Shown here in pieces: positions 3,236 through 63,309 of a DNA stretch of 64,000 bases; the stretch's first letter is position 1, and each line of letters begins with the position of its first letter. The stretch spans positions 1 to 64,000 of the IMG/VR virus record IMGVR_UViG_3300001598_000045; one strand, given 5' to 3'. Position numbers and translations under genes: made by a program. Source of the DNA: a virus. Its lineage: Duplodnaviria; Heunggongvirae; Uroviricota; Caudoviricetes. The notes beneath the pieces were generated by a model. That model did not search any database and was not told the DNA's origin. It saw only the letters and a list, made by a program, of their open reading frames with translations.

Positions 3236-3652
3236 ATGAAAATATATATTGCAGGACCATTCTTTAGTGAACAAGAAAGAGTTGATTTAAAAAGGATGAT
3301 TCATTATATTCAACAAACTAATCCTGGAGCTGAACTATTTATACCAATGGAGCATTTTGTTCCTGGTGGTGATGCTAGAGATGAACATGGTGAGTATGTA
3401 ATGAATAATGCTGAATGGGGAAGACGGGTATTTGAATTAGACTTAGAAGGTATGAAGGACTGCAATGAATTATATGTTCTTTATTATGGTCTTTATTCAG
3501 ATACTGGAACTGCATGGGAAGTTGGTTATGCTTATGCTAAGAATATACCTATTACATTATTTGTACCATCAGAAGAAGTTAAATTATCTTCCGTGATGAT
3601 ACATAATTCAGCAAAAGTTGTAATAGCAAATAAAATTTTAGAACAAAAATAA
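3236..3652 (+). CDS. nucleoside 2-deoxyribosyltransferase-like protein
   Basis: KIYIAGPFFSEQERV and DTGTAWEVGYAYA blocks are typical of the NDT family. Confidence 0.65.
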   Translation: MKIYIAGPFFSEQERVDLKRMIHYIQQTNPGAELFIPMEHFVPGGDARDEHGEYVMNNAEWGRRVFELDLEGMKDCNELYVLYYGLYSDTGTAWEVGYAYAKNIPITLFVPSEEVKLSSVMIHNSAKVVIANKILEQK

Positions 3653-3694
3653 AAAGGTAGAGAATTAATCTATCTTTTATTTTCCTTATATTTG

Positions 3695-4252
3695 ATGAGA
3701 GAGTATGACTTATTTAGCTTAAGAGATAAATTAAATAATCTGGATATTAATGTAATAAGAGATACTTGGAGAGATGGTGAATTGTGGGCATCTGGTTTAT
3801 CCGATATTTATAAATTATCAGAAGACGATATAACTGAATATGTAGTTGGTGAAAAAATAAAAATAGATAAAGAAATATTTACAATTATTTCATTATATGA
3901 AAATACTAAATTACCTAAAGTAGTAATGTATGATGAGAATATCTCTAATATTTCTTGGAATAAAGCAATGAAACTATATATACCTGATGATTTTAAATAT
4001 ATACCTAGTATTAATGATTTTTTAGAAATAAAAGATAATTTAAAGAAAGTATTCAGTACTATTCCTGAAATAATTAATGAAAGTAATAAGCAAAATGGTG
4101 TATGGTCAAGATCACTATTTACATCAACTTCAAAAGATGAACGATTTGCATATTATTTTAATGTATATACTCAAGAATCTTATTTAGTATTGAAAGAATT
4201 AGAAAGCCCTGTTATGAATACAGTATTTTTTAAAAAGCTAAGAAATATATGA
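3695..4252 (+). CDS. hypothetical protein
   Basis: ATG at 3695 follows CCTTATATTTG directly, so the mRNA would be leaderless. The ORF track lists a TTG start at 3692. Confidence 0.5.
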   Translation: MREYDLFSLRDKLNNLDINVIRDTWRDGELWASGLSDIYKLSEDDITEYVVGEKIKIDKEIFTIISLYENTKLPKVVMYDENISNISWNKAMKLYIPDDFKYIPSINDFLEIKDNLKKVFSTIPEIINESNKQNGVWSRSLFTSTSKDERFAYYFNVYTQESYLVLKELESPVMNTVFFKKLRNI

Positions 4253-4638
4253 AAATTTTAATTATTATATATTTAGTAATAGCATTTATTTTATCTATAT
4301 TTAAAGAAGATCATATATTTAGTACATTTCTTTGGCCCATTACTACTCTTTTAACTCCCATAAGAGAAATAAGAAAACAAAAGAGAGATAAAAAATTTTA
4401 TTCTATAAAACATAATTGTGGAAAATTTATAATTAGATTTGATGAAAATTATGAATCAAATGATTATAGAATTGATATAGGTTCAGGAGGTGATGGCATA
4501 TACATAATTACAGTATCTCCAGAAATATCAAAAGAAGTCCTAACGGATGCTCTTAATGAGTTTGTATCTAGGCCAATGATAGTAAATAAAGAGCAGTATT
4601 ATAATAGCATAATATTAGTACAAAATTTAATAAAATAA
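4249..4638 (+). CDS. hypothetical protein (N-terminal TM helix)
   Basis: 129-aa ORF overlapping the stop of the upstream gene. Confidence 0.5.
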   Translation: MKILIIIYLVIAFILSIFKEDHIFSTFLWPITTLLTPIREIRKQKRDKKFYSIKHNCGKFIIRFDENYESNDYRIDIGSGGDGIYIITVSPEISKEVLTDALNEFVSRPMIVNKEQYYNSIILVQNLIK

Positions 4639-47083: not shown

Positions 47084-47171
47084 TAGACTATATTATCTCA
47101 TCTAGAGTTTCGCCTATAGTCTTTGAACTTTTTTTAAGTTGCTGATTTGATTTCTCATCTTTCCAGCATTT
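47084..47171 (-). ncRNA. group I intron catalytic core g (compact, no ORF)
   Basis: Minus-sense P AAATGCTGGAAAG, Q CAAATCAGCAAC, R GTTCAAAGACTATAGG, S GATAATATAGTCTAG. Confidence 0.55.
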
Positions 47172-47347
47172 AGTGAAATTTTATTACTACATATATAAAA
47201 TATAGTACTGTAGGGATTCATTACGACTTCAACACGGCGCTGCTTTCCTGACTCATCTACCATTATAGGCATTTCTTCATCCGGGGTTACAGCAGATATA
47301 ACACCTTTTCCTCCATCAAATTTATATTCTAATTTTGTATTAGAATT

Positions 47348-48381
47348 TAGACTGTATCTTTTTCAAATTGTACACAGTCGTTGAAAATTTTAATTTTTAT
47401 TTATTAATTTATATCCACTATCTTCTTCTGATAGTAATCTTTCTACATAATGTCTAGATCTATGTAATAATTTTGCACAATTAGTAATGCTCCTATATAT
47501 CGTTCCATCAGGGCCTATTATTTTATTTGATACATCAAAATTATCTACTTTATATTTAAATCCTTTTTCTGGATGAAATTTTAGCCAATTATATATAGTA
47601 CCTCTAGATACAGAATTATTTTTAGCACATTCATCCATCGTCCCATACTCTTTTCCATCTGGACCAATAATTTGACGCGCTGTTATTGAATTCGAGCCAG
47701 ATATTTTATCAATTGCCGATTGTTTTATCTTTATATTTTTTCTAGACTCACTTAATTTTTGTTTTTGTTCATCTGAAAATATAATTCCTTTTCTAGAATT
47801 TGACAATTTTTTCCTAGACTCTTCATTTAAAATATGACCTTTTCTTATCTTACTTAATAATTCTTTCGTTTCTTGTGAAGCTTTTTTTCCTTTATGAGAT
47901 TCAGATAATTTCTTTTTTGTCTCATCTGAATGTTTTCGATTAGTATTTAATTTACGTAAATAATCTATACTCTTCTCTCTCAATTCCTCTAATGATTTTA
48001 ATGAAACTCTATAAGGAATTTTATTACCATTTTCATCTAATTTATAGGTATTTTCTTTACGATCACTATGACTTGATTGAATCATTCGTAAATATGCATA
48101 TAACAGTTCATTACTGTCTGGATAAATAAATGTTAATAAATGATGCGCAATTATATGTTCTTTAAAAGTTAATAATACTAAATTATCTTTATTATCATTT
48201 CCACCTAAACATTTAGGAAGTATATGATGTTTATTTAATCCATCCCCTTTTCTCTTTATAACTCCTCTAAATTTACGTGATTCTACTAAATCGTCATATA
48301 CTTTTTTATAATTCATCTTTGCTATAATTAATAAATTTTATAAAATTTTGCTGATTCTATATTAATAGTTCCAGCAATTCT
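47348..48381 (-). mobile_element. group I intron core f carrying the HNH homing endonuclease ORF between the P/Q and R/S elements
   Basis: P/Q AGAATTGCTGGAACTATTAATATAGAATCAGCA at 48349-48381. R/S TTTCAACGACTGTGTA...AAAAGATACAGTCTAAA at 47348-47387, directly after the HNH stop. Confidence 0.6.
47390..48316 (-). CDS. HNH homing endonuclease with NUMOD3 and NUMOD1-like DNA-binding repeats
   Basis: HHILPKCLGGNDNKDNLVLLTFKEHIIAHH (HNH). Repeated KKLSESHKGK/RKKLSNSRKG (NUMOD3-like) and C-terminal GPDGKEYGTMDECAKNNSVSRGTIYNWL x2 (NUMOD1-like). Confidence 0.85.
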   Translation of the reverse strand: MNYKKVYDDLVESRKFRGVIKRKGDGLNKHHILPKCLGGNDNKDNLVLLTFKEHIIAHHLLTFIYPDSNELLYAYLRMIQSSHSDRKENTYKLDENGNKIPYRVSLKSLEELREKSIDYLRKLNTNRKHSDETKKKLSESHKGKKASQETKELLSKIRKGHILNEESRKKLSNSRKGIIFSDEQKQKLSESRKNIKIKQSAIDKISGSNSITARQIIGPDGKEYGTMDECAKNNSVSRGTIYNWLKFHPEKGFKYKVDNFDVSNKIIGPDGTIYRSITNCAKLLHRSRHYVERLLSEEDSGYKLINKN

Positions 48382-49720: not shown

Positions 49721-49837
49721 TTAGGACTATATCACTCTAAAATTATATTAGATTATATACATAGTCTCTGAATATAAAATATTTATTAAAGATATTTATA
49801 CTGCTGATTACTATTAAATTTAGTTTCCAGCATTTTT
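49721..49837 (-). ncRNA. group I intron catalytic core e
   Basis: Minus-sense P AAATGCTGGAAAC, Q TAATCAGCAGTA, R TTCAGAGACTATG, S AGAGTGATATAGTCCTAAG. Confidence 0.55.
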
Positions 49838-49919
49838 ATATAATTTTCCATTTATTTCAATGGCGACCAATTAAAATCGGAGTCATTTATTCAAGATATG
49901 TCAAATCTAAATATCTTGA

Positions 49920-50027
49920 TAGACTGTATCTTTATTATCTTTGCACACAGTCTTTGTATGTAATTATCTATATATTAATTAAAATAATTACACTGCTGAT
50001 TCTATATTAATAGTTCCAGCAATTCTC
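49920..50027 (-). ncRNA. group I intron catalytic core d
   Basis: Minus-sense P GAGAATTGCTGGAAC, Q GAATCAGCAGTG, R ACAAAGACTGTGTG, S AAAGATACAGTCTATC. The P/Q module is nearly identical over 37 nt to those of cores c and f. Confidence 0.55.
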
Positions 50028-50068
50028 AAAGTTCTTAGGAAATTTTAATTTCCTCGGACTACTCTTAT

Positions 50069-51031
50069 TTAATCCGCGAGATCTATAAGATCGCTCAAGC
50101 TTTCATTATATGCAGTTGTCTTTGGAATAGTTACTTTTGCTCCTAAACTTCCAAGGTTCATTGCATTTATTCCGGGTGGTACTTGCACATTAGAATCACC
50201 CGCAGTAGCTTCTTGTGTTCCTTTAAAGAATCTATATGAGAGACGAGTTATTGAAGTTATTTGATCCTGTAACTTACCTTGTTTCATGAAGTAATTTTGT
50301 ATTTGTTTACGAGCTCCATAGTAATTTCTTCTATTATTGCTCTTAAATATAAACTGCATAAAGCCGGTAGGAACAGAGTCAATAGTTTTATCAATAATTA
50401 AATCTCTTAATCTATCATCTCCAAAGGCTAGACATTCCTGAATAAGTTGAGTGGTAATATATTCTGGTTTATAGTCTAGATCTAATTTTATTTGAAACTT
50501 TTTACTTTGTCGTTCTGTAAGTTTCAATAATTCTTTCTTCTCCCCTGTAACAGTATCAATGTCGTCATATTTTATATCTATGGCTCTTTCTGAATATCCT
50601 GTTTCAAAGTTTGTTCTTTTTACTTTAAGAATCTTAGTTTTAATGTCATATCTTCTATCATAGTCAAAGTTAATAATATACTCACCTGAACCTGACATTT
50701 TAATACGACAATCATAATCTGGATTCAATTTATTAGTTGCGATACGATATGCACCCTCTATAATAAAAGCACCATCAATCTCTTTAGGTACTTCAAATTC
50801 AGATTCTAAAATTCCTGGATCATCATTTATAGTATACTCAATTTTAACTTTATGAGATGCAGTTAAACCATTCTCAATAAAATAAGATGCTGGTTTTTCT
50901 GGTTCTTCTACTATATGAAATTTTAGATCTGTTATTTTCTTTTTAGGATTATATTGATCTGCACTATTTAAAAATCTCGATACTAATATTTTAGCTCCAT
51001 GATTCTTAAAATATTCGTTAAAATTACTCAT
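50069..51031 (-). CDS. rpoB: RNA polymerase beta subunit, N-terminal coding segment
   Basis: GAFIIEGAYRIATNKL aligns to the bacterial beta block GTFVINGTERVIVSQL. ITSITRLS aligns to the region before fork loop 2. Confidence 0.8.
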   Translation of the reverse strand: MSNFNEYFKNHGAKILVSRFLNSADQYNPKKKITDLKFHIVEEPEKPASYFIENGLTASHKVKIEYTINDDPGILESEFEVPKEIDGAFIIEGAYRIATNKLNPDYDCRIKMSGSGEYIINFDYDRRYDIKTKILKVKRTNFETGYSERAIDIKYDDIDTVTGEKKELLKLTERQSKKFQIKLDLDYKPEYITTQLIQECLAFGDDRLRDLIIDKTIDSVPTGFMQFIFKSNNRRNYYGARKQIQNYFMKQGKLQDQITSITRLSYRFFKGTQEATAGDSNVQVPPGINAMNLGSLGAKVTIPKTTAYNESLSDLIDLAD

Positions 51032-51381
51032 TACAATAGTGTTTTAATATTTAATTGTTTATACTCACAATCTACCGTGTTAAAAAATTCTTCTATATCT
51101 TTTCTAATACTATCCTTTAAATCTCTAGCTTCTACATATTCACTCATTACCTTTTCACTTCTACATCTAAAAAATGCATCATAAGTAACTAAATAATTAT
51201 ATGTATCTTTTAACTGATATAATACTAACTTAACTGAGAATCTTTCATACTTATCTGGAATATTATCTTTCAAACTAGTATATAAAATATCTCTAGCCTT
51301 TATTACATCTGGATCTTTACTGTCTAATATATTATAGGGAATTTCATATGATAGCGTAATTTTAAAATAATGATCGTTCAT
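51031..51381 (-). CDS. hypothetical protein (possible small polymerase-associated subunit or downstream exon)
   Basis: 116-aa ORF between the beta' and beta genes. Confidence 0.4.
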   Translation of the reverse strand: MNDHYFKITLSYEIPYNILDSKDPDVIKARDILYTSLKDNIPDKYERFSVKLVLYQLKDTYNYLVTYDAFFRCRSEKVMSEYVEARDLKDSIRKDIEEFFNTVDCEYKQLNIKTLL

Positions 51382-51404
51382 ATTTATATCACCTTGTATA
51401 TGTA

Positions 51405-51656
51405 TTAAAAGTCCATATTCATCATGTTACCAGTTATATTTCTTACTGGTCTTGACTCTAACTGAACTTCTTTCTTTTCTGTAATTTCCTCTTTCTTCCT
51501 ATCATCCACAACAGGCATTTCCGGAGTATTTACAGTATTTTCATTTAAACTACCCGAAGACGATGAAGTAGAATAAACTACCTCACCATCTTTACGGATA
51601 ATAATATTGATATTTAATTCTCTCTCAAATCTTGGTAAATCAAATTCAATCTTCAT
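51405..51656 (-). CDS. hypothetical protein; candidate downstream exon following intron core c
   Basis: 83-aa ORF beginning about 75 nt after the S element of core c. Confidence 0.35.
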   Translation of the reverse strand: MKIEFDLPRFERELNINIIIRKDGEVVYSTSSSSGSLNENTVNTPEMPVVDDRKKEEITEKKEVQLESRPVRNITGNMMNMDF

Positions 51657-51739
51657 ATCTATTTTTCATCAAGTTTATCATTCATGAGCAAGCCCAAAAT
51701 TGTTTCCGTCCTTTAAAAAATATACATATCTGTATATTA

Positions 51740-51834
51740 TAGACTATATCTTTAAAATTCATACATAGTCTTTGAAAATAACATATATTTAAAGTTATTC
51801 TGCTGATTCTATATTAAATAGTTCCAGCAATTCC
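51740..51834 (-). ncRNA. group I intron catalytic core c
   Basis: Minus-sense P GGAATTGCTGGAAC, Q GAATCAGCAGAA, R TTCAAAGACTATG, S AAAGATATAGTCTATA. Begins 2 nt after the HNH-2 stop. Confidence 0.55.
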
Positions 51835-51846
51835 TAAAATTCTAAA

Positions 51847-52662
51847 TTAAATAATTTTCTTTCGTTTAGTCTTCTTGTAAAATTTAAAGCCTTTTTCTGG
51901 ATGTTTTTCTATCCAATAGACAATCGTACTATAACTTACTAAATATTTTTTTGCCATTTCTACTACTGAAAGTATTTCATTAGAGGGATCAATAACTAAA
52001 TCCAGATGCTCCCTTCTTTTTATACTTAAGCGTTTCTTTACTTCATCAGTATGATGTTTATTAAAAAATGGATTTGCTTCGCCAGTAAACTTACCTAGCC
52101 TACTTTTTGAAATCTTATCACAATGTTCTTTAGTAAATTTAGGTCTTTTACGATTTTTTAAAGACTTTCGTATTTTTTCTTTATGTTCTTCACTTAAATG
52201 TCCATTATAATTCCAATGTTTTTCTCCTAGCTCACGTTCACTCATTTTCTTTCTTGACTCTTCAGTATGTTTTCTATTATACATCGGATTATTTTCTCCA
52301 GATCTATCGATTTTAGATCTAGAATAAGCTTTTTCTCGTAATGTTGCAATTAGTTTTGAGTTCTTTAATGCAACGAATTTAACATCTTTCCCTCTATTTA
52401 ATGTTTTATCAAATTTTGTCAAAGCAAGAATTGAATATAATAACTTAGAGTTATCTGGGTAAATTTCAGATAATAGTATATGTGCTAAAAGATGTTCTCT
52501 AGCCGTTAATAGTACTTTATTATCAGCTGTATCTGGACCATTTAAACATTTTGGTACAATATGGTGAATTTCATAATACTCTCCTTTTAATTTTGATTTA
52601 TCTAAACCTCTTTTCTTTCTAGAATCCATTAAATCATCATATATTTTTTTATAATTCATTAT
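51847..52662 (-). CDS. HNH-NUMOD homing endonuclease 2 (in frame with the upstream beta' segment)
   Basis: MNYKKIYDDLMDSRKKRG...EIHHIVPKCLNGPDTADNKVLLTAREHLLAH. Its N-terminus is nearly identical to that of HNH-1. NUMOD3-like repeats and a C-terminal NUMOD1-like module. Confidence 0.8.
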   Translation of the reverse strand: MMNYKKIYDDLMDSRKKRGLDKSKLKGEYYEIHHIVPKCLNGPDTADNKVLLTAREHLLAHILLSEIYPDNSKLLYSILALTKFDKTLNRGKDVKFVALKNSKLIATLREKAYSRSKIDRSGENNPMYNRKHTEESRKKMSERELGEKHWNYNGHLSEEHKEKIRKSLKNRKRPKFTKEHCDKISKSRLGKFTGEANPFFNKHHTDEVKKRLSIKRREHLDLVIDPSNEILSVVEMAKKYLVSYSTIVYWIEKHPEKGFKFYKKTKRKKII

Positions 52663-54003
52663 ATAGTAATTTTTAATTTTATTTAATTTAGGACAACATT
52701 TAATTATCACATCACCAGAAAGATCTACATCTCCCTTAAGTGCTTTATCAACAATTTTAGAACTATAACCATAACTCAAAACAGTATAGAATGATTTTTT
52801 ATTTAACACAGATTGACCCGCACCTTGATATTGTATTTCCTCTAATTTATCTTTAGGTCCATAAGTTAATTTAGTTAAACCTACAAACAATAACTCAATA
52901 ATTTCTTCTGGAGTCGAATCTAAAGATGATAAACCAGTCTTCATATATCCATCATCAGTTAAAGTATACATCTGCTTACGGAAAATTAAATATATATCAT
53001 TTAGTCTCTTTGGTCCTAATACACTTGATACAGTTCTCATATTAACTACACCAGAACAAATCTTATCAAACTTATGAACCTGAGCACCATCTGGAAAATA
53101 ATACATACTTCTTGGATTATATTGATATTCTTGATTACCAATAAATACATGAATCTCTCCTTTATTATCTTCTGTATATTTAATTATACCATCATCATAT
53201 GCATAACAATCTGCTACATTAATTGTTTCTTTTTCAAAATATTTAGTTCCATTTCCACCTTTTGCATTCATTAAATTAATTAATGTATTTACTTTTACAA
53301 TAGGTGAACTAGTATTATATGCAACACAAATATTTTCTCCTTTTTCAAATTTTGTTTTTCCTAAAGTTACAAGATTATCTGGACGTGGATATTTTAATTC
53401 AGCGCCTCTAACTTTTAAATATATCCACTTTCCTTCTTCACTAAAAGTACATGGTTTATCTGCTACTAAATAACCAGATTTATCCAAAACTCTTTCATGA
53501 CCACCGTGTTTTAATCCTAATGCAGCTTGTGTAGTACCTTCTGTAAAACTTGTTGCAAAAGATAATCCAATAGCAGCTCCATCAGTAAAATCAGATACAC
53601 CTGGACGATGACCTATTAAATCAGGAGTCACTACATTCAAGTCACCTTTTACTTTTGTAACTATAGAACGAACAGGAACTAAATCATTTTCATCTCCTTT
53701 TGCTATCGGAGTATTAGGATAAACTTTTCCATTTGGTGCAGTTCTTCCTAATGCTTTATAACGAGGAATTAATAAACCTTCATTAGTCTTGTCTTCTCCT
53801 TCATGATAAACGAAATTATTTAATACGAAGGAAATTTGTCTTGTTAAATATCCCGAAGTAGGACATATATAGCCTTTAAAACTATATACGGAATTATAAT
53901 CTCTATAATTCATTAGACTATACCATGAGATAATAAATATATCCCTACAATATTTAGTCGTTGATCTTATTACTACATTACTACTCGGCTTTAATGTCTT
54001 CAT
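52663..54003 (-). CDS. rpoC: RNA polymerase beta' subunit, C-terminal coding segment (trigger-loop region)
   Basis: TSGYLTRQ aligns to bacterial NSGYLTRRL. GAAIGLSFATSFTEGTTQAALGLKHGG aligns to the trigger loop [36 protein letters not shown] aligns to TGLSSLVVLDS. The 5' roughly 40 codons may be intron. Confidence 0.75.
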
Positions 54004-54224
54004 TCTTTATCCCTGCGGCGGAATTCTTAAGCTCCTGATAATGATTTATTTGCTTTAATACTTCGCCGGCTGTAACTAGAATGGTAGTAATAGCCGATAA
54101 AACTTTCAATACATTTCCTAATTTCATAATAAGTTGCTGATTAATTGTTAAAAATTTTATATCTTTTTCACACTATTCCCAGCATTTTTCTGCTTTTTGA
54201 TAGTGATGCTCCAATTCTTCATAT
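54004..54224 (-). mobile_element. intervening sequence with a group I P/Q module and a divergent GC-rich candidate P7
   Basis: P/Q AAATGCTGGGAA...TTAATCAGCAAC at 54133-54187. Candidate P7 strands cagccggcg at 54064-54072 and cgccgcagg at 54013-54021. Confidence 0.4.
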
Positions 54225-55214
54225 TTAAACACCACCTTGCTTAATAGACTGTAATGATCTATTTTCTACACTATGTAATATCATGTCATGTTCTGCATAT
54301 GAACCTAACAATGATCCACGTGTAATAACTGGTTTTTCATCTATACCCGAAACAATCAATTGAGGCATGTTTAAGGCGGATATTGATGAAATTTTAACTC
54401 GTCCAGCTCGATTCAATTCATTCTTTAAATCTTCTGTAAATTTGCCTTCTATTTCTTTCTCGTATTTAGCATATTTATCAGTTAAGATTGCAAGTTTCTG
54501 TTGATCCGTTAATTCCTTCGAGTCAGCTACTTTACAAATTTCTTTATAAAGTTCTGTATTGGTATCTACATATAATGTCTTATAGTCAAATGTTACTACA
54601 CCTGCTAAAGTCACTACACGAAGAGCAAATATTTGTAATTCTCTTCTCTTCTCAACACCATCTTCTTGCCCATTTAAATAAGCTGATAACTTCGCTGCGG
54701 CTTTTGCATCAATTCGTTTAAATGGGTCTGATAAAATATGAAGATCTTCTAAGTCTGCATCCAATATTTTAGAAATTCTTATTCTACCATAACTTGTTGT
54801 TTTACTTTTATAGTTCACATTTCCAATTTTGCCTGTATATGTAATTGGAGTACCTATTTTTATTTTCTTATCAACCTCTACATCTTTTAATAATTGAACA
54901 TAATCTGTATAGAAATGTTTTGGATTCTCTAAGTCATCCTCATTTTCCAATACATATTCTGTTGCCACTGCTAAACCATTAAGAGTTTCATGATTAAATG
55001 GAAATATAGGCTTTCCACTTTTTTTATATACATTTACATAACGAGGCGACATTTTTTTATATGTATCCTCTGCAATTTCTTCTGGAACAAGCTGCAGGGC
55101 TACGGTATCGCCGTCAAAATCGGCATTTAATGGCTCACAAACTGCAATTGGATAGTGAATTGCATAATCGTCAACTAATCTTTGCTTCATACAGAATATT
55201 GAATATTCGTGCAA
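54225..55214 (-). CDS. rpoC: RNA polymerase beta' subunit, middle coding segment (catalytic NADFDGD)
   Basis: AIHYPIAVCEPLNADFDGDTVALQLVP aligns to bacterial [27 protein letters not shown]. Confidence 0.85.
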   Translation of the reverse strand: MHEYSIFCMKQRLVDDYAIHYPIAVCEPLNADFDGDTVALQLVPEEIAEDTYKKMSPRYVNVYKKSGKPIFPFNHETLNGLAVATEYVLENEDDLENPKHFYTDYVQLLKDVEVDKKIKIGTPITYTGKIGNVNYKSKTTSYGRIRISKILDADLEDLHILSDPFKRIDAKAAAKLSAYLNGQEDGVEKRRELQIFALRVVTLAGVVTFDYKTLYVDTNTELYKEICKVADSKELTDQQKLAILTDKYAKYEKEIEGKFTEDLKNELNRAGRVKISSISALNMPQLIVSGIDEKPVITRGSLLGSYAEHDMILHSVENRSLQSIKQGGV

Positions 55215-55990
55215 TGATGGTTGGCGATCAACTCATGTTTTGTCGAATATATTTCAATTCAACCACAGACTATATTTTCTATTACTAGTTTTATCCATAG
55301 TCTTTGAGCTTAAATATAATTTTTAACTTCTAAATTTAAGTTTTTATTTTCTTTTGTTTTTTGTAATAAGAAATTATAAACTTGTCTTTTTTCTTTTTTA
55401 TCCATGAATTCAGTATATCTAGTACCGGATTCATCTAATTGTGTATATTTTTGGAATTTTATAAATGTATCAAATTCTAAATCTGCTAGTTCATATGTAG
55501 GTCCTGAAATAATAAGAAGTACTTTACCACCTAAAATTTGTTTCTGTGTTCGTCTTTCCCAGTCTTTAGAGAAACCTACTTTAATACTAGATGGAAAATC
55601 TAGCATATAAATATAACCATTATCTCCTTGAAATTTATTATGGAGTAAGGTTCTATTAGCTTGTCGTTGATGATACTCTGATCCATATCCGTGAGAAGAT
55701 TTATCTAAAAGATTTCTTTCACGGATACTTTTCATTCTTTCTCTCTTTTCATCAGATACATTCCACAAACCAATCTTAGAGGTACCATTATATCTTCCTT
55801 CTTGATGTAGTTGTTTCATGTGTTCTGATCTATTGAATGTCAGATCAGAGTATGAATTTTGTCGTAATATAATCATATCTGTCTGTTTTTTAATTAATAG
55901 AGATTCCAGTTAAAAATAAATTTAAGCTGCTGATTCCTTAACTTCCACGTTAAAGTTCCAGCAATTCATAAAATTCGAATTGGCATTTTC
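55215..55990 (-). mobile_element. group I intron (core a) carrying the GIY-YIG-like ORF between the P/Q and R/S elements
   Basis: P/Q TGAATTGCTGGAAC...GGAATCAGCAGC at 55927-55968. R/S GCTCAAAGACTATGG...GAAAATATAGTCTGTG at 55264-55309, abutting the ORF stop. Confidence 0.6.
55310..55876 (-). CDS. GIY-YIG superfamily (T5orf172/MUG113-like) endonuclease candidate, intron-encoded
   Basis: C-terminal GYIYMLDFPSSIKVGFSKDWERRTQ resembles the N-terminal domain of ORF 9908-10525. The basic N-terminal region KRERMKSIRERN is NUMOD3-like. Confidence 0.55.
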   Translation of the reverse strand: MIILRQNSYSDLTFNRSEHMKQLHQEGRYNGTSKIGLWNVSDEKRERMKSIRERNLLDKSSHGYGSEYHQRQANRTLLHNKFQGDNGYIYMLDFPSSIKVGFSKDWERRTQKQILGGKVLLIISGPTYELADLEFDTFIKFQKYTQLDESGTRYTEFMDKKEKRQVYNFLLQKTKENKNLNLEVKNYI

Positions 55991-57181
55991 GGGTTTACCA
56001 ATTTGTAGGGAATTTAACCCTAACGTACCAGTATTGAAATATATTAGCACGCATTGTTTTTCAGCATACTCTTGGAACAGTTTTTGAGTTTCTGGGTCAA
56101 GAGCTTCATACTTAGTTGCCTTTTTTGCTTCATCATAAGTAAAGTTCAATTCCTCTTGTAATCTCTTAATAAATCCTTCGCGGCACATTTCATAAGCTAT
56201 ACTACGAGGAACACCTATTTCATCAATTGCAAGGGTAGTAGACGGAACAATTGGACATCTAGCTGAATTTTTAGTGCGGACAGAATAAAGTTCACGAGCT
56301 AAATTATCTTTCGAAGTTTCCAATAATTTAGTTGCTTCTCTTTTACCAGTATTAATTAAAGCACGTAATAATGCAGTATATCGTACTCTCTCTCCTGGTG
56401 TTTTGAACTGTGACATAACTAAGTTGTAATTAAGCGCATTACTCTTTACAGCTTCAGTACAACACAATCTAATTAAGTTACTATACCAAATAGATAGTTT
56501 ATGTGAACCCATTACTTTTTTACCATCTTTATAACCTAATGTAAAAGGTCTCATGATGGAAGGTTGCACAAGATAATATCTATTTATTAGTTTCATATAT
56601 TCTGTCAATCTTTCTGGAAAATGTTTTTTGATAATTGCCATAAGTCCTTCATAAGAACATTTACTTTCATCTGTAATAAACTCAGTAATTTTTAGTTCTT
56701 TTTTAGTAGCATTATATTCAAATTGGCAAGAATCAAATACTTTAATTCCCAACTTCTTTCCTCCACGGGTTGCACTATACCCATTTCGTTTTAAATCATC
56801 TCCTAAGAAATCTAACTTAATCGTACTAGATTCAAAAATATCATCAAATAAGTCTTTAAAGATATCAAATCTAAGATCATTTAGATAATAAAAAGGAAAT
56901 TCAATTCTAGCAAATCTTCTTAAAGCTTCATCTCTAGTAAATACTCTTGCACCACAATTAGGACAAGGTTCTGGAGAGGGTTGTCGAATTTTACCACAAA
57001 TACATCTATCTGCTATAGGCGAACCAAATGCATCTATGTCGTAAACACCTCCTGGAACTGGATGTACTCCGTCAAAGCTTAAATTAAGATCTCGGAAGTC
57101 AAAAAGAATTCTATCAACTCCATCACTTCTTGAATAATCTACAATAGCTTCATCTGTTAATAACTCTAGTGATACTGCCAT
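55922..57181 (-). CDS. rpoC: RNA polymerase beta' subunit, N-terminal coding segment
   Basis: Bacterial-type zinc ribbon CICGKIRQPSPEPCPNCGARVFTRDEALRRFARIEF aligns to CxCGK...CxxCGVEV...RRERMGHIEL. RTKNSARCPIVPSTTLAIDEIGVPRSIA aligns to KRVDFSARSVI...LxIDEVGVP. The last roughly 20 codons overlap the intron P/Q module. Confidence 0.85.
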   Translation of the reverse strand: MAVSLELLTDEAIVDYSRSDGVDRILFDFRDLNLSFDGVHPVPGGVYDIDAFGSPIADRCICGKIRQPSPEPCPNCGARVFTRDEALRRFARIEFPFYYLNDLRFDIFKDLFDDIFESSTIKLDFLGDDLKRNGYSATRGGKKLGIKVFDSCQFEYNATKKELKITEFITDESKCSYEGLMAIIKKHFPERLTEYMKLINRYYLVQPSIMRPFTLGYKDGKKVMGSHKLSIWYSNLIRLCCTEAVKSNALNYNLVMSQFKTPGERVRYTALLRALINTGKREATKLLETSKDNLARELYSVRTKNSARCPIVPSTTLAIDEIGVPRSIAYEMCREGFIKRLQEELNFTYDEAKKATKYEALDPETQKLFQEYAEKQCVLIYFNTGTLGLNSLQIGKPENANSNFMNCWNFNVEVKESAA

Positions 57182-57193
57182 ATTTTTTTAAAA

Positions 57194-58282
57194 TTAATTA
57201 TTGATTTCATTCCAGATAATTTTCTTTGATAAATCGGTATCCATTGCATTATCTGCAGACCATTTCTTATAGACTTCTTTAACATCAGCAATTGCTTCAC
57301 CTCTGGTTTTATCCTTTAGTTTTTCATAAATTCCTGCATCTTCATCTATAACTACTTCAATTAAATCTGAAATAACATCTTGTGTGATTGCTTTAGAAGT
57401 ATTTGTAAACTTACTTCTATACTCACGATAGACAAGAACATCATCATAAGTTAAATCAAGATCTTTGTATTCAGATGAGGTACGAATTTCAGCAGGTTCT
57501 TTAGTAAACCAGGCTAATTGTAATTTTCGTACACGTTCCGCTACTTTATGTCTACCTAATTCATCATATCGTTTAGCAAGATCTTCTACAATATCATACT
57601 TTGACTTTATTATTTTACTTAATGCATTATCAATTTGTTTTGCATATACCCTAGGCATTGTTGGACATTTTAAAATAAGGTCATACATACCTGAAGAGAA
57701 CAAATAAATAATAAGAGCCGGGATATGTCTTTGTTTTCTACGTCTTGAAACGACAGAGTCCCTAGATAAATCTCTACTAGCAAGATAGCCAATAAAGCGA
57801 GCAATATGATCTCTAGCTTCCTGAGCAAACATTTTATTAAAACCGGAGTCATCTTCTAGTACAAAATCTATATCTACATCTTCTCCTGTAAGTGGAGAAT
57901 CTGGGACATAAATAGAGTTAACCATACGAGAGTGACCTTGCTTATGTAACATCTCCTTTACCATATTTCCAGCTGTATAAACTGAAGTATTTTTAGGACA
58001 AGCCAATGCGATAGTAGTAAGTGCATCTTCAATAGCAGTTTCTCTACTATTTTTATTAGCAGCAACAATGTCATCATAAGCAGAGATTAACCAACTTTCA
58101 GTAGATGTAATTCTACCACCTGATTCTTTTTCTACATCAGTTTTCTTTTTTGGTTTCTCTTCCTCTTCTTGCTCAATGGAATCATCATTTTCCTCTTCAT
58201 CTTCGGAATCATCTTCATTACCCTGATAATAACCCTCTTCTTCAAGTTCATCATCATCGCCTAACAAATAATCATCTTCCAT
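57194..58282 (-). CDS. hypothetical protein with highly acidic N-terminus
   Basis: The first roughly 45 residues are D/E-rich (MEDDYLLGDDDELEEEGYY...EEEEKPKKK). Immediately upstream of beta'. Confidence 0.5.
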   Translation of the reverse strand: MEDDYLLGDDDELEEEGYYQGNEDDSEDEEENDDSIEQEEEEKPKKKTDVEKESGGRITSTESWLISAYDDIVAANKNSRETAIEDALTTIALACPKNTSVYTAGNMVKEMLHKQGHSRMVNSIYVPDSPLTGEDVDIDFVLEDDSGFNKMFAQEARDHIARFIGYLASRDLSRDSVVSRRRKQRHIPALIIYLFSSGMYDLILKCPTMPRVYAKQIDNALSKIIKSKYDIVEDLAKRYDELGRHKVAERVRKLQLAWFTKEPAEIRTSSEYKDLDLTYDDVLVYREYRSKFTNTSKAITQDVISDLIEVVIDEDAGIYEKLKDKTRGEAIADVKEVYKKWSADNAMDTDLSKKIIWNEINN

Positions 58283-58438
58283 GTTCTTTGATTCTATTAT
58301 TATTTTCCATTAATTCACGTGACAAAAAAGCCCGAACTTCTTTGTCTTTCACTTATTAGTCTTTGAGGGGATTTGAGAAGAGTTTTGGCTATTTCAAAAA
58401 AAAATAAGAGCAGCTTTTACACTACTCTTATAATTATT

Positions 58439-61066
58439 TTAGCTGAAGATTATATTAACTTTTTCATCAATATAATCTACTTGGATATTCTTTTTACCCT
58501 CTATATCCTGATCCAACATTACTTTACAAATCTCCTGTTCAATATGTTCAACAAGTAAACGTTGTAAAGATCTTGCACCATATTCAGGTTCACACTTAGA
58601 TACTATAAAGTCTTTAAGCGCATCAGTAACAGTTAGAGTATATCCATTATTCTCTAAAAGTCTATCCTGCAATTTCTTAAGCTCAAGATAGAAAATTTTA
58701 CCTAATTCTTCAGTACCCAAACTATTGAATACTACAACTTTAGAAAGTCGATTTAAGAATTCAGGTCTAAATTCCTTCTTAACCTCTTTCATTACAGTCT
58801 CTACGTCAGCCTTTCTTTTATCATCTTTATTTAATTGCTGGAAACCAATACCATTACCTTTTAGGGCTAAAGCTTTAGTTCCTACATTTCCGGTAAAGAT
58901 GATAATTGAATTGCGACAACTAACCTTTTCTCCAGTACTCAAAGTAATCTCACCTTCTTCTAGCATATTAAGCCAGATATTATAAAGATTAGAATTACTC
59001 TTCTCAACCTCATCAATCAGTAATACACTATAAGGTTTTCTTTTAAGTACATATAGACGTGGTTCTGAATCTGAAAATCCAACATAACCAGGTGCAGAGC
59101 CAAGAAGTTTACTCTCAGCCCACTCTTGCATATATTCTGAACAAGCTATTGTAATTAAGCTATCTTCAGAACCCATAAACTCTTTGGCTACTAGTTTTGA
59201 TATTAAACTTTTACCAACACCGGTAGGACCAACTAATAGAAGCGAACATATAGGTTTATTTGGATTTCTAAGACCAAGAATATTACGCTGAAGAGCTAAA
59301 GTTAACTGCTCTACTGCTTCATCTTGACCAATAATTTGATCTTCTAAAGCTTTTTTCATAGACTTTACTTTAGCAACATCAGAACTACGTATTTTATCGA
59401 TAGGTACGTTTGATGTCTTAGATATAACGCTGCAAAGATCATCAATAGTAACTTCAACTAAATTTTTACTATCCATACTATCTAGTTCTTTCTGCTGTTT
59501 ATCTTTCTCCTCACGCAATGAATTAATAGTATCACGTAATTGAGCAGCTTCTTCAAATCTAGACTCATTAATGGCAACTATCTTTTGCTGAACTAAATTA
59601 TTAATCTGATCATCCAACAAATCTATATTAGATGTATCGACTTTTTTACGTAACTTAGCGCAACTAGATGCCATATCTAAAACTGATATAGCTTTGTCTG
59701 GGAAATATCTATCATTAATATACTTTCCAGACCATTCAACACATTTAGTAATTATCTCATCCGTATAAGAAACGTGATGGAATTTACTATATGTTTTTGA
59801 TAATCCTTTTAATATTTCGATTGTTTCTGGGATTGTAGGTTCAGTTACAAATACCGGGCTAAAACGACGCTTTAAAGCACCATCCTTTTCAATAAACTTA
59901 CGATATTCATCTACCGTAGTTGAACCTATACATTGGAATTCTCCACGAGCTAAGTATGGTTTTAATATATTAGCTCCATCACCAGATCCACTTGATGAAC
60001 CATTACCTATTAAGTTATGTATTTCATCAATAAAGATTATCACATCCTTATTTTCAGTGACTTCTTTAATAATATCTTGAAGACGCTGTTCATACTGTCC
60101 ACGATATTGAGTTCCAGAAACAAGAGCATTCAAATCTAAGCTGAAAATTCTCTTATTCTTTAACTCTCTTGGAATATTGCCTTCTACAATACGTTGTGAC
60201 AAAAGCTCGATTACTGCAGTTTTACCACAACCAGGATCTCCTAATAATACTGCATTATTTTTCTTTCTACAGCAAAGGATTTCTACAATTTGATCAATTT
60301 CTTTTGATCTTCCAACTACCGGATCATAAATGCCTTGTTTTGCATTAGCAGTCATTTCAACTGCAAATTGATCCAATGATGGTGTTTTTGAATTAGGATC
60401 TACCTTTTTAGAAGATATTGTTTTTCGTTGACCTGCTCTTTCAAAACGCTCATCCTCATCATCCTTACTCATATTAGGATCTATTCGTGAGCCTTCTGTA
60501 AATAGATTTTTCTCTTTAAAAATAGCACCATTGTCATTTAGGAATTTCTTATCCATGTTATCCATTCTACCCTCAACTAATTTATCAAGGGTAACATTAT
60601 ATCGATCATTCATAAGACCAATGATCTCAATATGACCTTCTGTTAATAACATTGTAAATAAATCTTCCGTATTTATAACAACATCATCCGTTTCATCAAC
60701 AACTTCTCGTAACCTAGCAGCACCTTCAGCTCGTTTAAAAGCAGTTTCAAGTACATCCGATAACAATATATTATCACTGTTATACAAATTAGCTGCTATT
60801 ACGATTGGCTGCTTAGCACGCTCCATTGCTTTATAACAATCTCTTTCTAGTGATATTTTTTCATCGACTCCTAATTCATCAAGAGTTTTAAATAATATAT
60901 CACCGTCTAATTTACTTCCATCACTCGTTGTTGTATATTTTTTAATAGTGAAGTAAATAATAGACTCGACAGAGATATTTAATTGTTTAAACTGTGCAGC
61001 ATATTCAAATGCTTTACTTAAAATTCCATCCAATTCGTCTGTAATCTTAAAATTCAATTTATTCAT
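58439..61066 (-). CDS. Clp/Hsp100 family AAA+ ATPase (ClpA/B/C-like, two nucleotide-binding domains)
   Basis: NBD1 Walker A LLGDPGCGKTAV and Walker B IIFIDEIHNLIG. NBD2 Walker A LLLVGPTGVGKSL and Walker B VLLIDEVEKSN. The promoter core CTTATATATG abuts the ATG. Confidence 0.85.
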   Translation of the reverse strand: MNKLNFKITDELDGILSKAFEYAAQFKQLNISVESIIYFTIKKYTTTSDGSKLDGDILFKTLDELGVDEKISLERDCYKAMERAKQPIVIAANLYNSDNILLSDVLETAFKRAEGAARLREVVDETDDVVINTEDLFTMLLTEGHIEIIGLMNDRYNVTLDKLVEGRMDNMDKKFLNDNGAIFKEKNLFTEGSRIDPNMSKDDEDERFERAGQRKTISSKKVDPNSKTPSLDQFAVEMTANAKQGIYDPVVGRSKEIDQIVEILCCRKKNNAVLLGDPGCGKTAVIELLSQRIVEGNIPRELKNKRIFSLDLNALVSGTQYRGQYEQRLQDIIKEVTENKDVIIFIDEIHNLIGNGSSSGSGDGANILKPYLARGEFQCIGSTTVDEYRKFIEKDGALKRRFSPVFVTEPTIPETIEILKGLSKTYSKFHHVSYTDEIITKCVEWSGKYINDRYFPDKAISVLDMASSCAKLRKKVDTSNIDLLDDQINNLVQQKIVAINESRFEEAAQLRDTINSLREEKDKQQKELDSMDSKNLVEVTIDDLCSVISKTSNVPIDKIRSSDVAKVKSMKKALEDQIIGQDEAVEQLTLALQRNILGLRNPNKPICSLLLVGPTGVGKSLISKLVAKEFMGSEDSLITIACSEYMQEWAESKLLGSAPGYVGFSDSEPRLYVLKRKPYSVLLIDEVEKSNSNLYNIWLNMLEEGEITLSTGEKVSCRNSIIIFTGNVGTKALALKGNGIGFQQLNKDDKRKADVETVMKEVKKEFRPEFLNRLSKVVVFNSLGTEELGKIFYLELKKLQDRLLENNGYTLTVTDALKDFIVSKCEPEYGARSLQRLLVEHIEQEICKVMLDQDIEGKKNIQVDYIDEKVNIIFS

Positions 61067-61101
61067 ACATATATAAGATTTTTACAGTTTTTAAAAAGAT
61101 A

Positions 61102-61794
61102 TTATTTATCTTCCCTTTCAGCCTTCTTTTGTTTATTTCGATCTGACCTATTCTGAATAGCTCGATATAAACTAATTGCCCACTCAGTTAAGTCTTCAGG
61201 CATTACTGGAACTAATGGTCGATGTATCCATTCCTCTTCAGATAAACCGTCAATATTAATAAAATTTGAATGTTCCAAAGATCTTACTACTAATTCGGAA
61301 TGGGTTATTATTAGAACACCATAAATATTCTTTTCGATTTTCTTAAGTAAATCGTTAAGATATAAACAAGTTCCTAAAATAACTTCATTACTCATTCCTA
61401 TTTCTAACTCATCTATTACTAAAAATTTCTTAGTAATTTCTTTTTTATTAGATTCATCATCTTTAAAATTATTCAATAAGCGGGTTAAAGTATAAATAGT
61501 ACTTTGTGATGTGGAATCCTCAGGCATATCATGAGTTATACTACTAAATGCACCCCATTCAGACTTTAACTCAGTACGTAATTGCATTGATATACTAGAA
61601 ACAGACCTTTCTTTTTCATTTAAACCAAGTCTTCTATTTATACTAAAAGGTAATAATTTTCTGATTAATGATTTACCAGATGCATTACTGCCAGTTAATA
61701 TAGTTATTTTTCCAACTTCGATAGAATCAGCTATAGATATTAATTTATCAATATGCTCTTCTAAATGTTCTTCTGTTAAATTTTTGTAATCCAT
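61102..61794 (-). CDS. compact ABC-type ATPase (SMC/RecF-like head, AAA_21-like)
   Basis: Walker A ILTGSNASGKSL, Walker B/D-loop LVIDELEIGMS, H-loop LIITHS. Confidence 0.55.
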   Translation of the reverse strand: MDYKNLTEEHLEEHIDKLISIADSIEVGKITILTGSNASGKSLIRKLLPFSINRRLGLNEKERSVSSISMQLRTELKSEWGAFSSITHDMPEDSTSQSTIYTLTRLLNNFKDDESNKKEITKKFLVIDELEIGMSNEVILGTCLYLNDLLKKIEKNIYGVLIITHSELVVRSLEHSNFINIDGLSEEEWIHRPLVPVMPEDLTEWAISLYRAIQNRSDRNKQKKAEREDK

Positions 61795-61802
61795 ATTTTC
61801 TA

Positions 61803-61845
61803 TTTCTATTTATAAGGATAAAAATGGATTCTAGGCGGTAAAAAA
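61803..61845 (-). promoter_or_regulatory. conserved phage promoter motif
   Basis: Minus-sense TACCGCCTAGAATCCATTTTTATCCTTATAAATAG. Confidence 0.55.
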
Positions 61846-61856
61846 ATACTGAAGAA

Positions 61857-62243
61857 TTAATCCTCAGGATTAATATTTTCATTCCAATGCTCTTGGATCC
61901 ACCTAACTCTAAATTCACCTAAAGTTTCTTCAGATCCATCAGGTTTATAAGTAATTGGTTTATCATCAAATTTACCAAAAATTTCTTCTCGATAAAAAGC
62001 CAGTGATAATTTTTCAAACCTTTCAATCATACCTGATGGTGGATTGTAACATATCCATTTAGCACCTTCAATAAAATCATTCCTTCTACCACTATAATCT
62101 TGATAGACAGGTTCAGTTAATTTTACTGATCCAGTCTTAACGGCTTCTACACTAGCAATATTGAAATCATTTAAATCTAAATAATGATCTTTAAATCTAA
62201 TCTCGGCCTCTTTTTTTGCTAATTCTAAATCTTCTTTTATCAT
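61857..62243 (-). CDS. hypothetical protein
   Basis: 128-aa ORF. Confidence 0.45.
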   Translation of the reverse strand: MIKEDLELAKKEAEIRFKDHYLDLNDFNIASVEAVKTGSVKLTEPVYQDYSGRRNDFIEGAKWICYNPPSGMIERFEKLSLAFYREEIFGKFDDKPITYKPDGSEETLGEFRVRWIQEHWNENINPED

Positions 62244-62851
62244 AATTTATAACACTTATAAGAACAACCTTGACCTTGCATTAAGCTTATGAAATACATA
62301 TTATCAATTTTATAAGCTAACTCTGGGAAATGAGATTGGGATTCCTGAGTCTGTTCACCATACTTTTCTGCATATTTAAATAATAATGCGAATAGTCTTT
62401 CTTCAGGTTCTCTCCCACATTTATATTCCCTTTCTTTATATTCTTTAGATGAATATTTTATAATTACTTTATCTATTATTTTACTACGGTCTTCTATACT
62501 AAGTTTATGAATTCTTTCAATCCATCTAGTATAAAAAGATTCATGAGTAATTTTTTCATACATATTTTTAGCTTCTTCTTCTGACATATTATTAAAAAAA
62601 TTCTCTAGCCTTTCTTTCATACTTTTTTGCTTATTAGAAGAACTTTTATTTAAACTTGCTGCTTTAATCAAAAATTTATTTTTTAAGTCAATATCTAATT
62701 TATGAAGTAGTTCAAATTCTACTTTTTTATTAGACCACTTACTAAAAAATAAATGAAGATATTTTTGAGTCGCTGCAAAATATTTAGTATCATTACAACT
62801 ATCAATAACTTTTCTAACTTTATCGTAATCTAAATAAATATTATTGTTCAT
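62240..62851 (-). CDS. hypothetical protein
   Basis: Start placed at the internal Met (MNNNIYLD) that directly follows CCTTATAAATAT. The ORF-track start at 62878 lies upstream of the promoter core. Confidence 0.45.
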   Translation of the reverse strand: MNNNIYLDYDKVRKVIDSCNDTKYFAATQKYLHLFFSKWSNKKVEFELLHKLDIDLKNKFLIKAASLNKSSSNKQKSMKERLENFFNNMSEEEAKNMYEKITHESFYTRWIERIHKLSIEDRSKIIDKVIIKYSSKEYKEREYKCGREPEERLFALLFKYAEKYGEQTQESQSHFPELAYKIDNMYFISLMQGQGCSYKCYKL

Positions 62852-62899
62852 ATATTTATAAGGAATTGAAGAAAACAAAAACGGAATATTTCATCCGCT

Positions 62900-63088
62900 T
62901 TATATAAAACATATGGCTACTAGTATTATAAAAACCCACCAGAAATTAAGTAAAAAAGACAAAATTCCTAATGCAGCTAAAATACCTAAACCTATTAATG
63001 GTGTGAATATTATAATCCACCATGACCAATCTATCTTACCTGCTATTTTTAGTAAGATAAATAGTAATAAAATAATTAAACAAATCAT
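62900..63088 (-). CDS. small membrane protein
   Basis: 62 aa, two hydrophobic helices. Competes with the overlapping plus ORF 62913-63275. Minus preferred from operon context. Confidence 0.3.
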   Translation of the reverse strand: MICLIILLLFILLKIAGKIDWSWWIIIFTPLIGLGILAALGILSFLLNFWWVFIILVAICFI

Positions 63089-63309
63089 AGTTTATAAATT
63101 ATATCTAAGTTATGATTACCAGATTCTTCAGTTCCATCAAGATTATATTGATGTAAACCGTAATCTTCTATATCTCGCTCTTTTATATATAGAATTGCTT
63201 TATCCATATATTGACTCCAACCTACTAAAACAGCGGGGCGATTATCTAAAGTTTGAAATAATTCTCCAAACTTAGCATCTTTGAAAATATTGCACTGATT
63301 ATCATTCAT
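63085..63309 (-). CDS. hypothetical small protein
   Basis: 74-aa ORF. Confidence 0.4.
   Translation of the reverse strand: MNDNQCNIFKDAKFGELFQTLDNRPAVLVGWSQYMDKAILYIKERDIEDYGLHQYNLDGTEESGNHNLDIIYKL

Follow-up and report, generated by a model that had tools for sequence, protein, structure and literature searches.

Introduction

The GIY-YIG endonuclease I-TevI is encoded in the P6 loop of the td group I intron of phage T4, an intron that interrupts an essential gene. Here we describe an arrangement of this kind in a 64,000-nucleotide (nt) stretch of viral DNA (Caudoviricetes; positions 1 to 64,000 of IMG/VR record IMGVR_UViG_3300001598_000045; hereafter the window), in which an open reading frame (ORF) of 188 amino acids (aa), the probable gene of a T5orf172-type homing endonuclease, lies in a predicted group I intron within the gene for the beta' subunit of a multisubunit RNA polymerase of an uncultured jumbo phage. 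Like I-TevI, the window ORF is a candidate GIY-YIG superfamily gene in the P6 loop of a phage group I intron within an essential gene. However, I-TevI represents a different GIY-YIG branch and carries its catalytic domain at the N-terminus, followed by C-terminal NUMOD3 and helix-turn-helix (HTH) modules. In the window ORF this order is reversed, and profile scans of it detected no NUMOD3, zinc finger or HTH.

T5orf172 proteins form a subfamily of the GIY-YIG nucleases and are encoded mostly by free-standing phage homing endonuclease genes, one of which sits beside, not inside, a terL intron (PMC10448857). The ICP1 ORF88 product, Odn, is a biochemically proven T5orf172 nuclease whose cleavage activity is abolished by the substitution E180A (PMC8263062). 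The window ORF resembles Odn and the phage T5orf172 nucleases in that a module for DNA recognition at the N-terminus, presumed here, is followed by a T5orf172-type GIY-YIG domain at the C-terminus, and it resembles the phage T5orf172 homing endonuclease genes in lying in or next to an essential phage gene. As in Odn, Y-I-G is replaced by K-[IV]-G, the first helix has no His/Tyr, and the catalytic Glu is aligned (E134 in the window ORF, E180 in Odn). The phage T5orf172 genes described are free-standing, whereas the window ORF is inside a group I intron. Its N-terminal module is unrelated to RepA_N or CapR domains and matches no profile, and unlike the T5orf172 group it is too divergent for direct detection by PF10544 or PF13455. 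A preliminary description of the locus had stressed that the catalytic domain comes last. This holds relative to I-TevI but is not unusual in itself, because Odn already has an N-terminal RepA_N-like domain and a C-terminal T5orf172 domain (PMC8263062).

Two further systems place an endonuclease gene inside an intron. In the jumbo phage PhiPA3, an intron of a virion RNA polymerase subunit gene encodes gp210, an HNH endonuclease directed against a competitor's intron-less homologue of that gene; it cripples PhiKZ (PMC11620839). The window ORF is likewise an intron-borne candidate endonuclease gene in a jumbo-phage multisubunit RNA polymerase gene, but gp210 is an HNH nickase of demonstrated activity in another subunit and phage lineage, whereas the window ORF product is of the T5orf172/GIY-YIG type and its activity is predicted. 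The psbA-750 group I intron of the Ulva chloroplast encodes a predicted T5orf172-type homing endonuclease (PMC10151680) and thus shares with the window ORF both the protein type and the location inside a group I intron. It is organellar, occupies another host gene and is detectable as T5orf172 by Pfam, whereas the window ORF is phage-borne and Pfam-blank; neither protein is biochemically characterised.

Introns and endonuclease genes are abundant in the 'Jug' jumbo phages of the animal and human gut (360-402 kb; contigs of 350-400 kb), which according to the accessible part of their description contain on average ~18 group I introns per genome and many HNH, GIY-YIG, PD-(D/E)XK and LAGLIDADG endonuclease genes that split essential genes, including 55 GIY-YIG genes in 139 genomes; metatranscriptomes confirm splicing for 37 of 76 predicted introns (PMC12880540). 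The split genes named in that part of the source are terL, nrdD and DNA polymerase, with no mention of RpoC introns (PMC12880540). The IMG/VR relatives of the window locus fall within the same size range as the Jug phages as given there, a likeness of size only.

Results

An intervening sequence in the beta' gene

The minus strand of the window (28% G+C) carries a phage-type RNA polymerase beta' gene in pieces. The first two are ORF 55922-57181, the N-terminal part, with a Pfam match to Rpb1 domain 2, and ORF 54225-55214, which matches the same Pfam domain and holds the NADFDGD catalytic motif; more pieces lie further downstream. Between the first two pieces, on the same strand, lies the 188-aa ORF 55310-55876. 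The frame of exon 1 continues beyond the homologous ..KQCVL into 45 non-homologous codons, while in the frame of exon 2 the conserved VDRQPSLHEYS codons sit upstream of every start codon and can therefore be expressed only once the intervening sequence is removed. The insertion point is between the codons for ..KQCVL and VDRQPSLH.. of beta'. Exon 1 was delimited from the ORF list and a Pfam RNA_pol_Rpb1_2 match, and the junction from P1 pairing and from colinearity with intron-less alleles.

A search of IMG/VR with the beta' exon yielded 73 loci. The beta' genes of L118 and L120 are uninterrupted over residues 1-718 and that of L139 up to residue 418, so that the intron-less alleles for which the preliminary description had suggested a search do exist in related phages. 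At the insertion site they read, without a gap, ..VLANRQPSLHEYS.. (L118), ..VLVNRQPTLHEYS.. (L120) and ..VMVNRQPTLHEYS.. (L139), and the predicted spliced product of the window, ..VLVDRQPSLHEYS.., is exactly colinear with all three. The predicted junction reads ..KQCVLVDRQPSLHEYS..., in RNA GUGCU^AGUUGAUCGC (the caret marks the junction), i.e. ...GCGUGCU joined to AGUUGAUCGCC, and the predicted intron-less junction of the window beta' is ...GAAAAACAATGCGTGCTAGTTGATCGCCAACCATCATTGCAC.... We infer from these comparisons that splicing restores a colinear beta' reading frame, and the existence of colinear intron-less alleles effectively excludes a naturally split gene.

Near beta' residues 378-381, L118, L120 and L139 encode the same Leu/Met-Val/Ala with the codons TTA GCT, TTG GTA and ATG GTA, respectively, and not with CT^A GTx. 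They are therefore without the GUGCU/GUACU sequence that pairs with the intron guide, and these codon versions might be resistant target variants.

The intervening sequence as a group I intron

The elements of a group I core flank the ORF on both sides (Table 1). The 5' splice site was placed after GUGCU, with 56046 as the last exon base, and the 3' splice site after ..AACAUG. P and Q lie 5' of the ORF and R and S lie 3' of it, the ORF filling the P6 loop between Q and R. The coordinates thus agree with the preliminary description, which had put the ORF between P/Q and R/S. Its statement that R begins at the ORF stop is also supported: R starts 3 nt beyond the final base of the stop codon, which is itself within the 3' strand of P6. 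The span it had given, 55215-55990, covers the element only in part, as the intron extends from 56045 to 55234.

Covariation was assessed by aligning 14 ORF-deleted introns from related contigs and scoring the structure on the alignment. In this set, 95.4% of cells were paired, compared with 30-44% for slid partners, and changes on both sides were found in 10 of 25 pairs, a degree of covariation reached by none of 500 shuffles. Such changes affected seven of the eight P6 pairs and three of the six P3 pairs, and P4 and P7 were invariant and 100% paired. When relatives were read by eye, the sequences of P5, P8 and P9 were found to differ with pairing kept; P8, for example, is AAGGUA/UACCUU, AGGAUA/UAUCCU and AGAGUA/UACUCU in three near-identical phages. 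P1 changes together with the exon, being GUGCU/GGUAC in the window, GUACU/GGUAC in relatives and GUGAU/GUCAC in L025. The ORF-deleted window intron gave a fold z-score of -4.65 (0/200 shuffles equally stable), and its minimum free energy (MFE) structure independently recovered P1, P2, P2.1 and P4-P9. With its predicted core, a U.G pair at the splice site and a terminal G, the intervening sequence is classed as a group I self-splicing intron.

Two ORF-less cores were noted in related loci. L025 has a second group I core (3555-3930) after its ORF-bearing intron, with a micro-exon of ~45 nt (VNRQPSLHEYSML) between them, so that the two introns are nearly back to back, and L001 has an ORF-less intron at VLVNRQP^.

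Family assignment of the ORF product

The preliminary description had likened the C-terminal region of the ORF product, which includes the block GYIYMLDFPSSIKVGFSKDWERR (residues 87-109), to the T5orf172/MUG113 branch of the GIY-YIG superfamily, and this assignment is borne out by distant relatives, invariant residues, structural matches and an alignment with Odn. The family is common but narrow: homologues form >300 clusters in metagenomes (64-100% identity, contigs up to 394 kb), and a HMMER profile of the family found only 28 representatives in a library of 1.84 billion proteins. These include P0138 (E 1.7e-15) and P0148 (E 4.8e-4). P0138 exceeds the Pfam cut-offs for both MUG113 (23.4 bits, cut-off 22.3) and T5orf172 (22.6 bits, cut-off 20), and P0148, whose link to the family is weak, passes the gathering scores with 41.3 bits for T5orf172 and 39.5 bits for MUG113. 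Six other relatives have sub-threshold T5orf172 or GIY-YIG matches at the homologous position. A search for annotated T5orf172 relatives seeded with P0138 returned four proteins, none of which is annotated.

Across 18 sequences down to 20% identity, the residues S66, Y90, K99, G101, R109, E134 and E156 are invariant. S66 belongs to the N-terminal module, and the others coincide with the GIY-YIG motifs: Y90 is the Tyr of 'GIY', K99-x-G101 the K-x-G that replaces 'YIG' in T5orf172 proteins, R109 the Arg, E134 the residue at the catalytic Glu position and E156 the E of the terminal E-[WFY]. An AlphaFold (AF2) model with a predicted local distance difference test (pLDDT) score of 79 has a beta-beta-alpha-beta-alpha core at residues 86-140, with the three-stranded sheet and flanking helices of the GIY-YIG fold. 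Foldseek comparison of the model with the viral models of BFVD gave 32 matches at E<=1e-3, among them 'T5 Orf172 domain' proteins, CapR-homology proteins, a Hef-like homing endonuclease and ICP1 ORF88. When the family was aligned with ICP1 Odn/Gp88 by hhalign (E 8e-5, probability 61%), all motifs were in register and E134 stood opposite Odn E180. From this transitive and model-based evidence, which includes no direct profile match, we conclude that the C-terminal domain is probably of the T5orf172 GIY-YIG type and that its catalytic set is intact.

The first 85 residues are basic, as previously noted (isoelectric point 9.8; 15 Lys and Arg versus 10 Asp and Glu), and residues 14-84, which form four helices in the AF2 model, are conserved in distant relatives, there preceded by C2H2/Ros-MucR-like and zinc-ribbon modules. 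It is reasonable to expect that this module binds DNA. The NUMOD3 likeness that had been proposed for it was not upheld. No NUMOD3 (PF07460) match was found in the ORF or in 36 relatives by a Pfam scan that finds three such repeats in a neighbouring HNH ORF, and an ad hoc hidden Markov model of eight local NUMOD3 repeats gave 2-4 bits only on the ORF family; what is left is a resemblance over ~10 residues (SDEKRERMKS) without statistical support.

Two other identities were rejected. PADLOC reported a Cas6b match over residues 102-188 (window 55310-55573; 20.2 bits, E 1e-4), which we judged spurious because it is seen in only one of 18 family members. An intein was discarded as well; the ORF has its own frame, start and stop, and is flanked by RNA structure.

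Insertion sites and mobility

Homologues of the ORF occur in beta' introns at four sites (Table 1), each with its own complementary guide and U.G pair. Site A is empty in L118, L120, L139, L001-L003 and L073, and occupied in the window and 67 other ORF-carrying IMG/VR loci. A fifth site at beta' residue 386 was rejected as a tblastn read-through into the intron, since the loci concerned use site A. Exon 1 residues 1-300 of L028 and L049 are 100% identical and their ORFs 70% identical, and for the pair W/L005 ORF identity (72%) is higher than exon identity (60%). These patterns of sequence identity are evidence for horizontal replacement.

The intron at residue 306 of L001 (5840-6700) shares the exon pentamer GUACU^A and the guide GGUAC with site A in other loci, which fits transposition to a guide-matching site, either by reverse splicing or by selection for P1 fit. 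In L028 (3001-4388) the site A intron contains two tandem endonuclease genes, a T5orf172-like ORF (3001-3606) being overlapped at its stop by an HNH and NUMOD3 ORF (3603-4388); the same organisation is seen in other loci with a gap of ~931 nt between ORF and exon 2. For the cultured Vibrio phage 150E35-1 (L077; OX241562, 58344-63146), GenBank lists two 'RNA polymerase subunit' genes with a hypothetical protein between them. What these entries represent is a beta' gene, with halves at 58344-59684 and 60690-63146, that a group I intron interrupts at NAD^HDGD; the intron carries a 250-aa homologue of the ORF, its S element is GAUAAGAUAUAGUCC and its P1 is GCUGAU/GUCAGC.

Further interruptions of beta' and its surroundings

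Megablast of window positions 54000-58000 against 50,697 phage records gave no match. On the minus strand of the window, more pairs of group-I-like P (TTGCTGGAA) and S (ATATAGTCY) motifs are located at 35612-35694, 47085-48377, 49724-50022 and 51741-51830. The P motif occurs seven times compared with 0.66 expected, a number reached by none of 100 shuffles, and the same-strand motif pairs suggest at least four further introns of the beta' intron's family in the window. Directly upstream of the pair at 51741-51830, a 718-aa ORF (51847-54003, minus strand) consists of a beta' exon that reads on in frame into an HNH endonuclease bearing three NUMOD3 repeats (61.5 bits). Together they form a second intron/endonuclease unit of the same beta' gene that is organised differently. 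In the relatives L005-L076, beta' is broken near residues 408, 420, 430, 456, 470, 603, 637 and 674 within the region 380-718, with up to five or six intervening sequences per gene and a pattern that varies even between near-identical phages. In these jumbo phages beta' has been wrongly annotated as a set of fragments.

Table 1. Predicted features of the beta' intron, its ORF and the beta' gene, with the insertion sites of ORF homologues (window coordinates; ^, intron position)
Feature	Position	Strand	Details
beta' exon 1	56046..57181	-	N-terminal part, ends ...KQCVL; last exon base U at 56046
Group I intron, 812 nt	55234..56045	-	Begins AAUAUAUUUC, ends ...AACAUG, terminal G at 55234; basis P1-P9, covariation, MFE
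P1	56025..56050	-	Exon GUGCU (56050-56046) with internal guide GGUAC (56029-56025); U.G at splice site
P2		-	UAGGG/CCCUA
P2.1		-	AAUUGG/CCAAUU
P3, 5' strand	55973-55968	-	UUUUAU, pairs with AUAAAA (P3', 55294-55289)
P element/P4	55966-55956	-	AAUUGCUGGAA; P4 is UGCUG/CAGCA
P5 hairpin	55955-55936	-	CUUUAAC/GUUAAGG
Q element/P4'	55935-55926	-	AAUCAGCAGC
P6, 5' strand	55920..55927	-	GCUUAAAU; pairs with 55315-55308
Intron ORF, 188 aa	55310..55876	-	Candidate T5orf172-type GIY-YIG endonuclease, P6 loop; ATG at 55876, TAA 55310-55312
N-terminal basic helical module, residues 14-84	55625..55837	-	Presumed DNA-binding
T5orf172-like GIY-YIG domain, residues 86-176	55349..55621	-	Y90, K99-V-G101, R108/R109, E134, E156-F
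P6, 3' strand	55308..55315	-	AUUUAAGC; includes ORF stop codon UAA (55312-55310)
R element/P7	55307-55295	-	UCAAAGACUAUGG; P7 is AGACUAU/AUAGUCU
P3'	55294-55289	-	3' partner of P3
P8	55288-55279	-	Short hairpin
S element/P7'	55277-55266	-	AAAUAUAGUCUG
P9	55262-55243	-	UUGAAU/AUUCGA
beta' exon 2	54225..55233	-	Begins AGUUGAUCGC; completes ..L-VDRQPSLHEYS..
NADFDGD catalytic motif of beta'	55107..55127	-	From translation; 35 codons downstream of intron site
Insertion site A, VL^V(N/D)RQP			Window and most relatives
Insertion site VRT^KNS, beta' residue 306			L001-L003; site A empty there
Insertion site TLH^EY, beta' residue 391			L073/L074
Insertion site NAD^HDGD			Cultured Vibrio phage 150E35-1; ORF 26% identical, extra zinc fingers

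Discussion

Our results make it likely that a T5orf172-type homing endonuclease is encoded in a mobile group I intron in this region of the window. Chance is a far poorer account of the observations, given the >300 metagenomic homologues of the ORF, its low dN/dS and the stability of the ORF-deleted intron fold. In the mechanism that we propose, the intron RNA would fold into its P1-P9 core and splice itself out: guanosine would attack behind the U of P1 (GUGCU/GGUAC), and ligation of the exons after the terminal G would restore a colinear beta'. The N-terminal module of the 188-aa protein would bind DNA and its C-terminal GIY-YIG domain would cut it, the target being, by analogy with I-TevI and Odn, most likely beta' alleles without the intron in co-infecting relatives. 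Repair of the cut with the intron-containing copy as template would spread the intron together with its ORF (homing), and the same cut would damage an essential gene of the competitor. For this particular element, we infer splicing, DNA binding, cleavage and homing from the sequence and from these analogies.

Several observations weigh against such an interpretation. The searches that started from the ORF itself gave no Pfam match at E<=1, one insignificant match in PHROGs, nothing in NCBIfam, only noise in a profile search against PDB sequences (E>1) and nothing significant in a Foldseek search of its model against PDB, and a Pfam scan of 36 family members at E<=10 produced a single T5orf172 match (E 0.041). 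The Pfam check suggested in the preliminary description thus failed for the ORF, while its relatives P0138 and P0148 passed for T5orf172/MUG113. No obvious Shine-Dalgarno sequence precedes the window ORF. At the RNA level, an Rfam scan of window 50000-60000 gave no match at E<=1 and did not detect the window intron; the model RF00028 (Intron_gpI; gathering score 50) is split by the 567-nt ORF in P6. Related introns score 45.5 bits (L073; E 1e-8), just below the gathering score, and 20.9 bits (L077) with this model.

The conservation of the ORF points in the same direction. Of the 73 related beta' loci in IMG/VR, 70 carry it, and a survey of 72 loci revealed no degenerate copy. Divergence of the ORF is largely correlated with that of the exon (rho 0.75), which shows mostly vertical descent. 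The ratio of nonsynonymous to synonymous substitution rates (dN/dS), estimated from phylogenetically non-independent pairs in one group of close relatives, is 0.019 for the ORF and 0.034 for beta' exon 1, indicating very strong purifying selection. This pattern looks more like a stably inherited useful gene than like the classic cycle of invasion, decay and loss, and the constraint is both stronger and more durable than that cycle predicts. An alternative is therefore kept alive in which the ORF is a retained beneficial gene, either a weapon against the beta' of co-infecting phages or a maturase that aids the folding of its own intron. It overlaps with the homing endonuclease interpretation and differs mainly in the selection that maintains the gene. 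A constraint on the ORF that is at least as strong as that on an essential beta' exon, the presence in nearly all loci with no degenerate copy and the parallel divergence of ORF and exon speak for it, but continuous homing in a mixed population could equally maintain the ORF. What speaks against a maturase is that the invariant residues coincide exactly with the GIY-YIG catalytic set, which would be superfluous for a pure RNA chaperone, and that no GIY-YIG maturase is known. The weapon version has a precedent in a jumbo-phage RNA polymerase gene, namely PhiPA3 gp210 acting against PhiKZ gp178 (PMC11620839), and this attack on a competitor's gene offers a rationale for purifying selection on the window ORF. 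Overall, we regard the retained gene as possible but doubtful.

It is improbable that the C-terminal domain, although of T5orf172 fold, lacks catalytic activity and that the protein serves only in DNA binding or regulation, as some T5orf172/Bro-type annotations imply. The Pfam name 'T5orf172 DNA-binding', borne by several of the BFVD matches, would fit such a role, as would the replacement of the classic YIG tyrosine by Lys99 and the lack, shared with Odn, of the His/Tyr in the first helix of classic GIY-YIG enzymes (PMC8263062). However, even relatives with 20-35% identity all retain Y90, R109, E134 and E156, and Odn, with the same motif variants, is an active nuclease that needs the aligned Glu.

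A chance likeness to GIY-YIG in a protein of another fold, such as an RRM/RAMP-like RNA-binding protein of the Cas6 type, is very improbable. The PADLOC score for Cas6b and the missing direct Pfam match would favour it, but the Cas6b match is confined to a single family member, SLX1 GIY-YIG domains rank above RAMPs, two relatives pass the Pfam T5orf172/MUG113 thresholds and the motif register with Odn is exact. Hardly credible at all is a beta' that is naturally split into two polypeptides as in PhiKZ/AR9-type polymerases, with a free-standing ORF between them: splits are common in phage multisubunit polymerases, gene callers report separate genes and Rfam has no match on the window, but the flanks form a complete group I core with covariation support, the VDRQPS codons precede any exon 2 start codon, exon 1 runs on into non-homologous codons, related phages have uninterrupted, exactly colinear genes, and the break point varies between phages over four sites.

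An intron with a homing endonuclease in an essential phage gene is already well known, and the mechanism considered here is ordinary for phage biology. The protein family escapes Pfam and other standard domain libraries and is a divergent new example of two known kinds. What stands out is this invisibility to Pfam, together with the fidelity to the beta' catalytic-centre region across very distant phages and the extreme conservation. Our analysis gives a name and a testable function to a family of several hundred 90%-identity metagenome clusters that domain libraries leave blank, and it provides a case from phages in which a group I intron encodes a probable T5orf172-type nuclease, in an element that would target the catalytic-centre region of a viral RNA polymerase. 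The family may range from gut jumbo phages to a marine Vibrio phage and occupy at least four sites around the beta' catalytic centre. Experiments could make use of the cultured Vibrio phage 150E35-1, whose beta' gene also harbours a homologue. Tentatively, the family may be a long-term, selectively maintained resident of beta' in distant phages that hops between sites and is kept for interference competition or for a service to the intron beyond homing. With so low a dN/dS and so near to fixation, the family lends itself well to the question of whether phages retain intron endonucleases as weapons against co-infecting phages.

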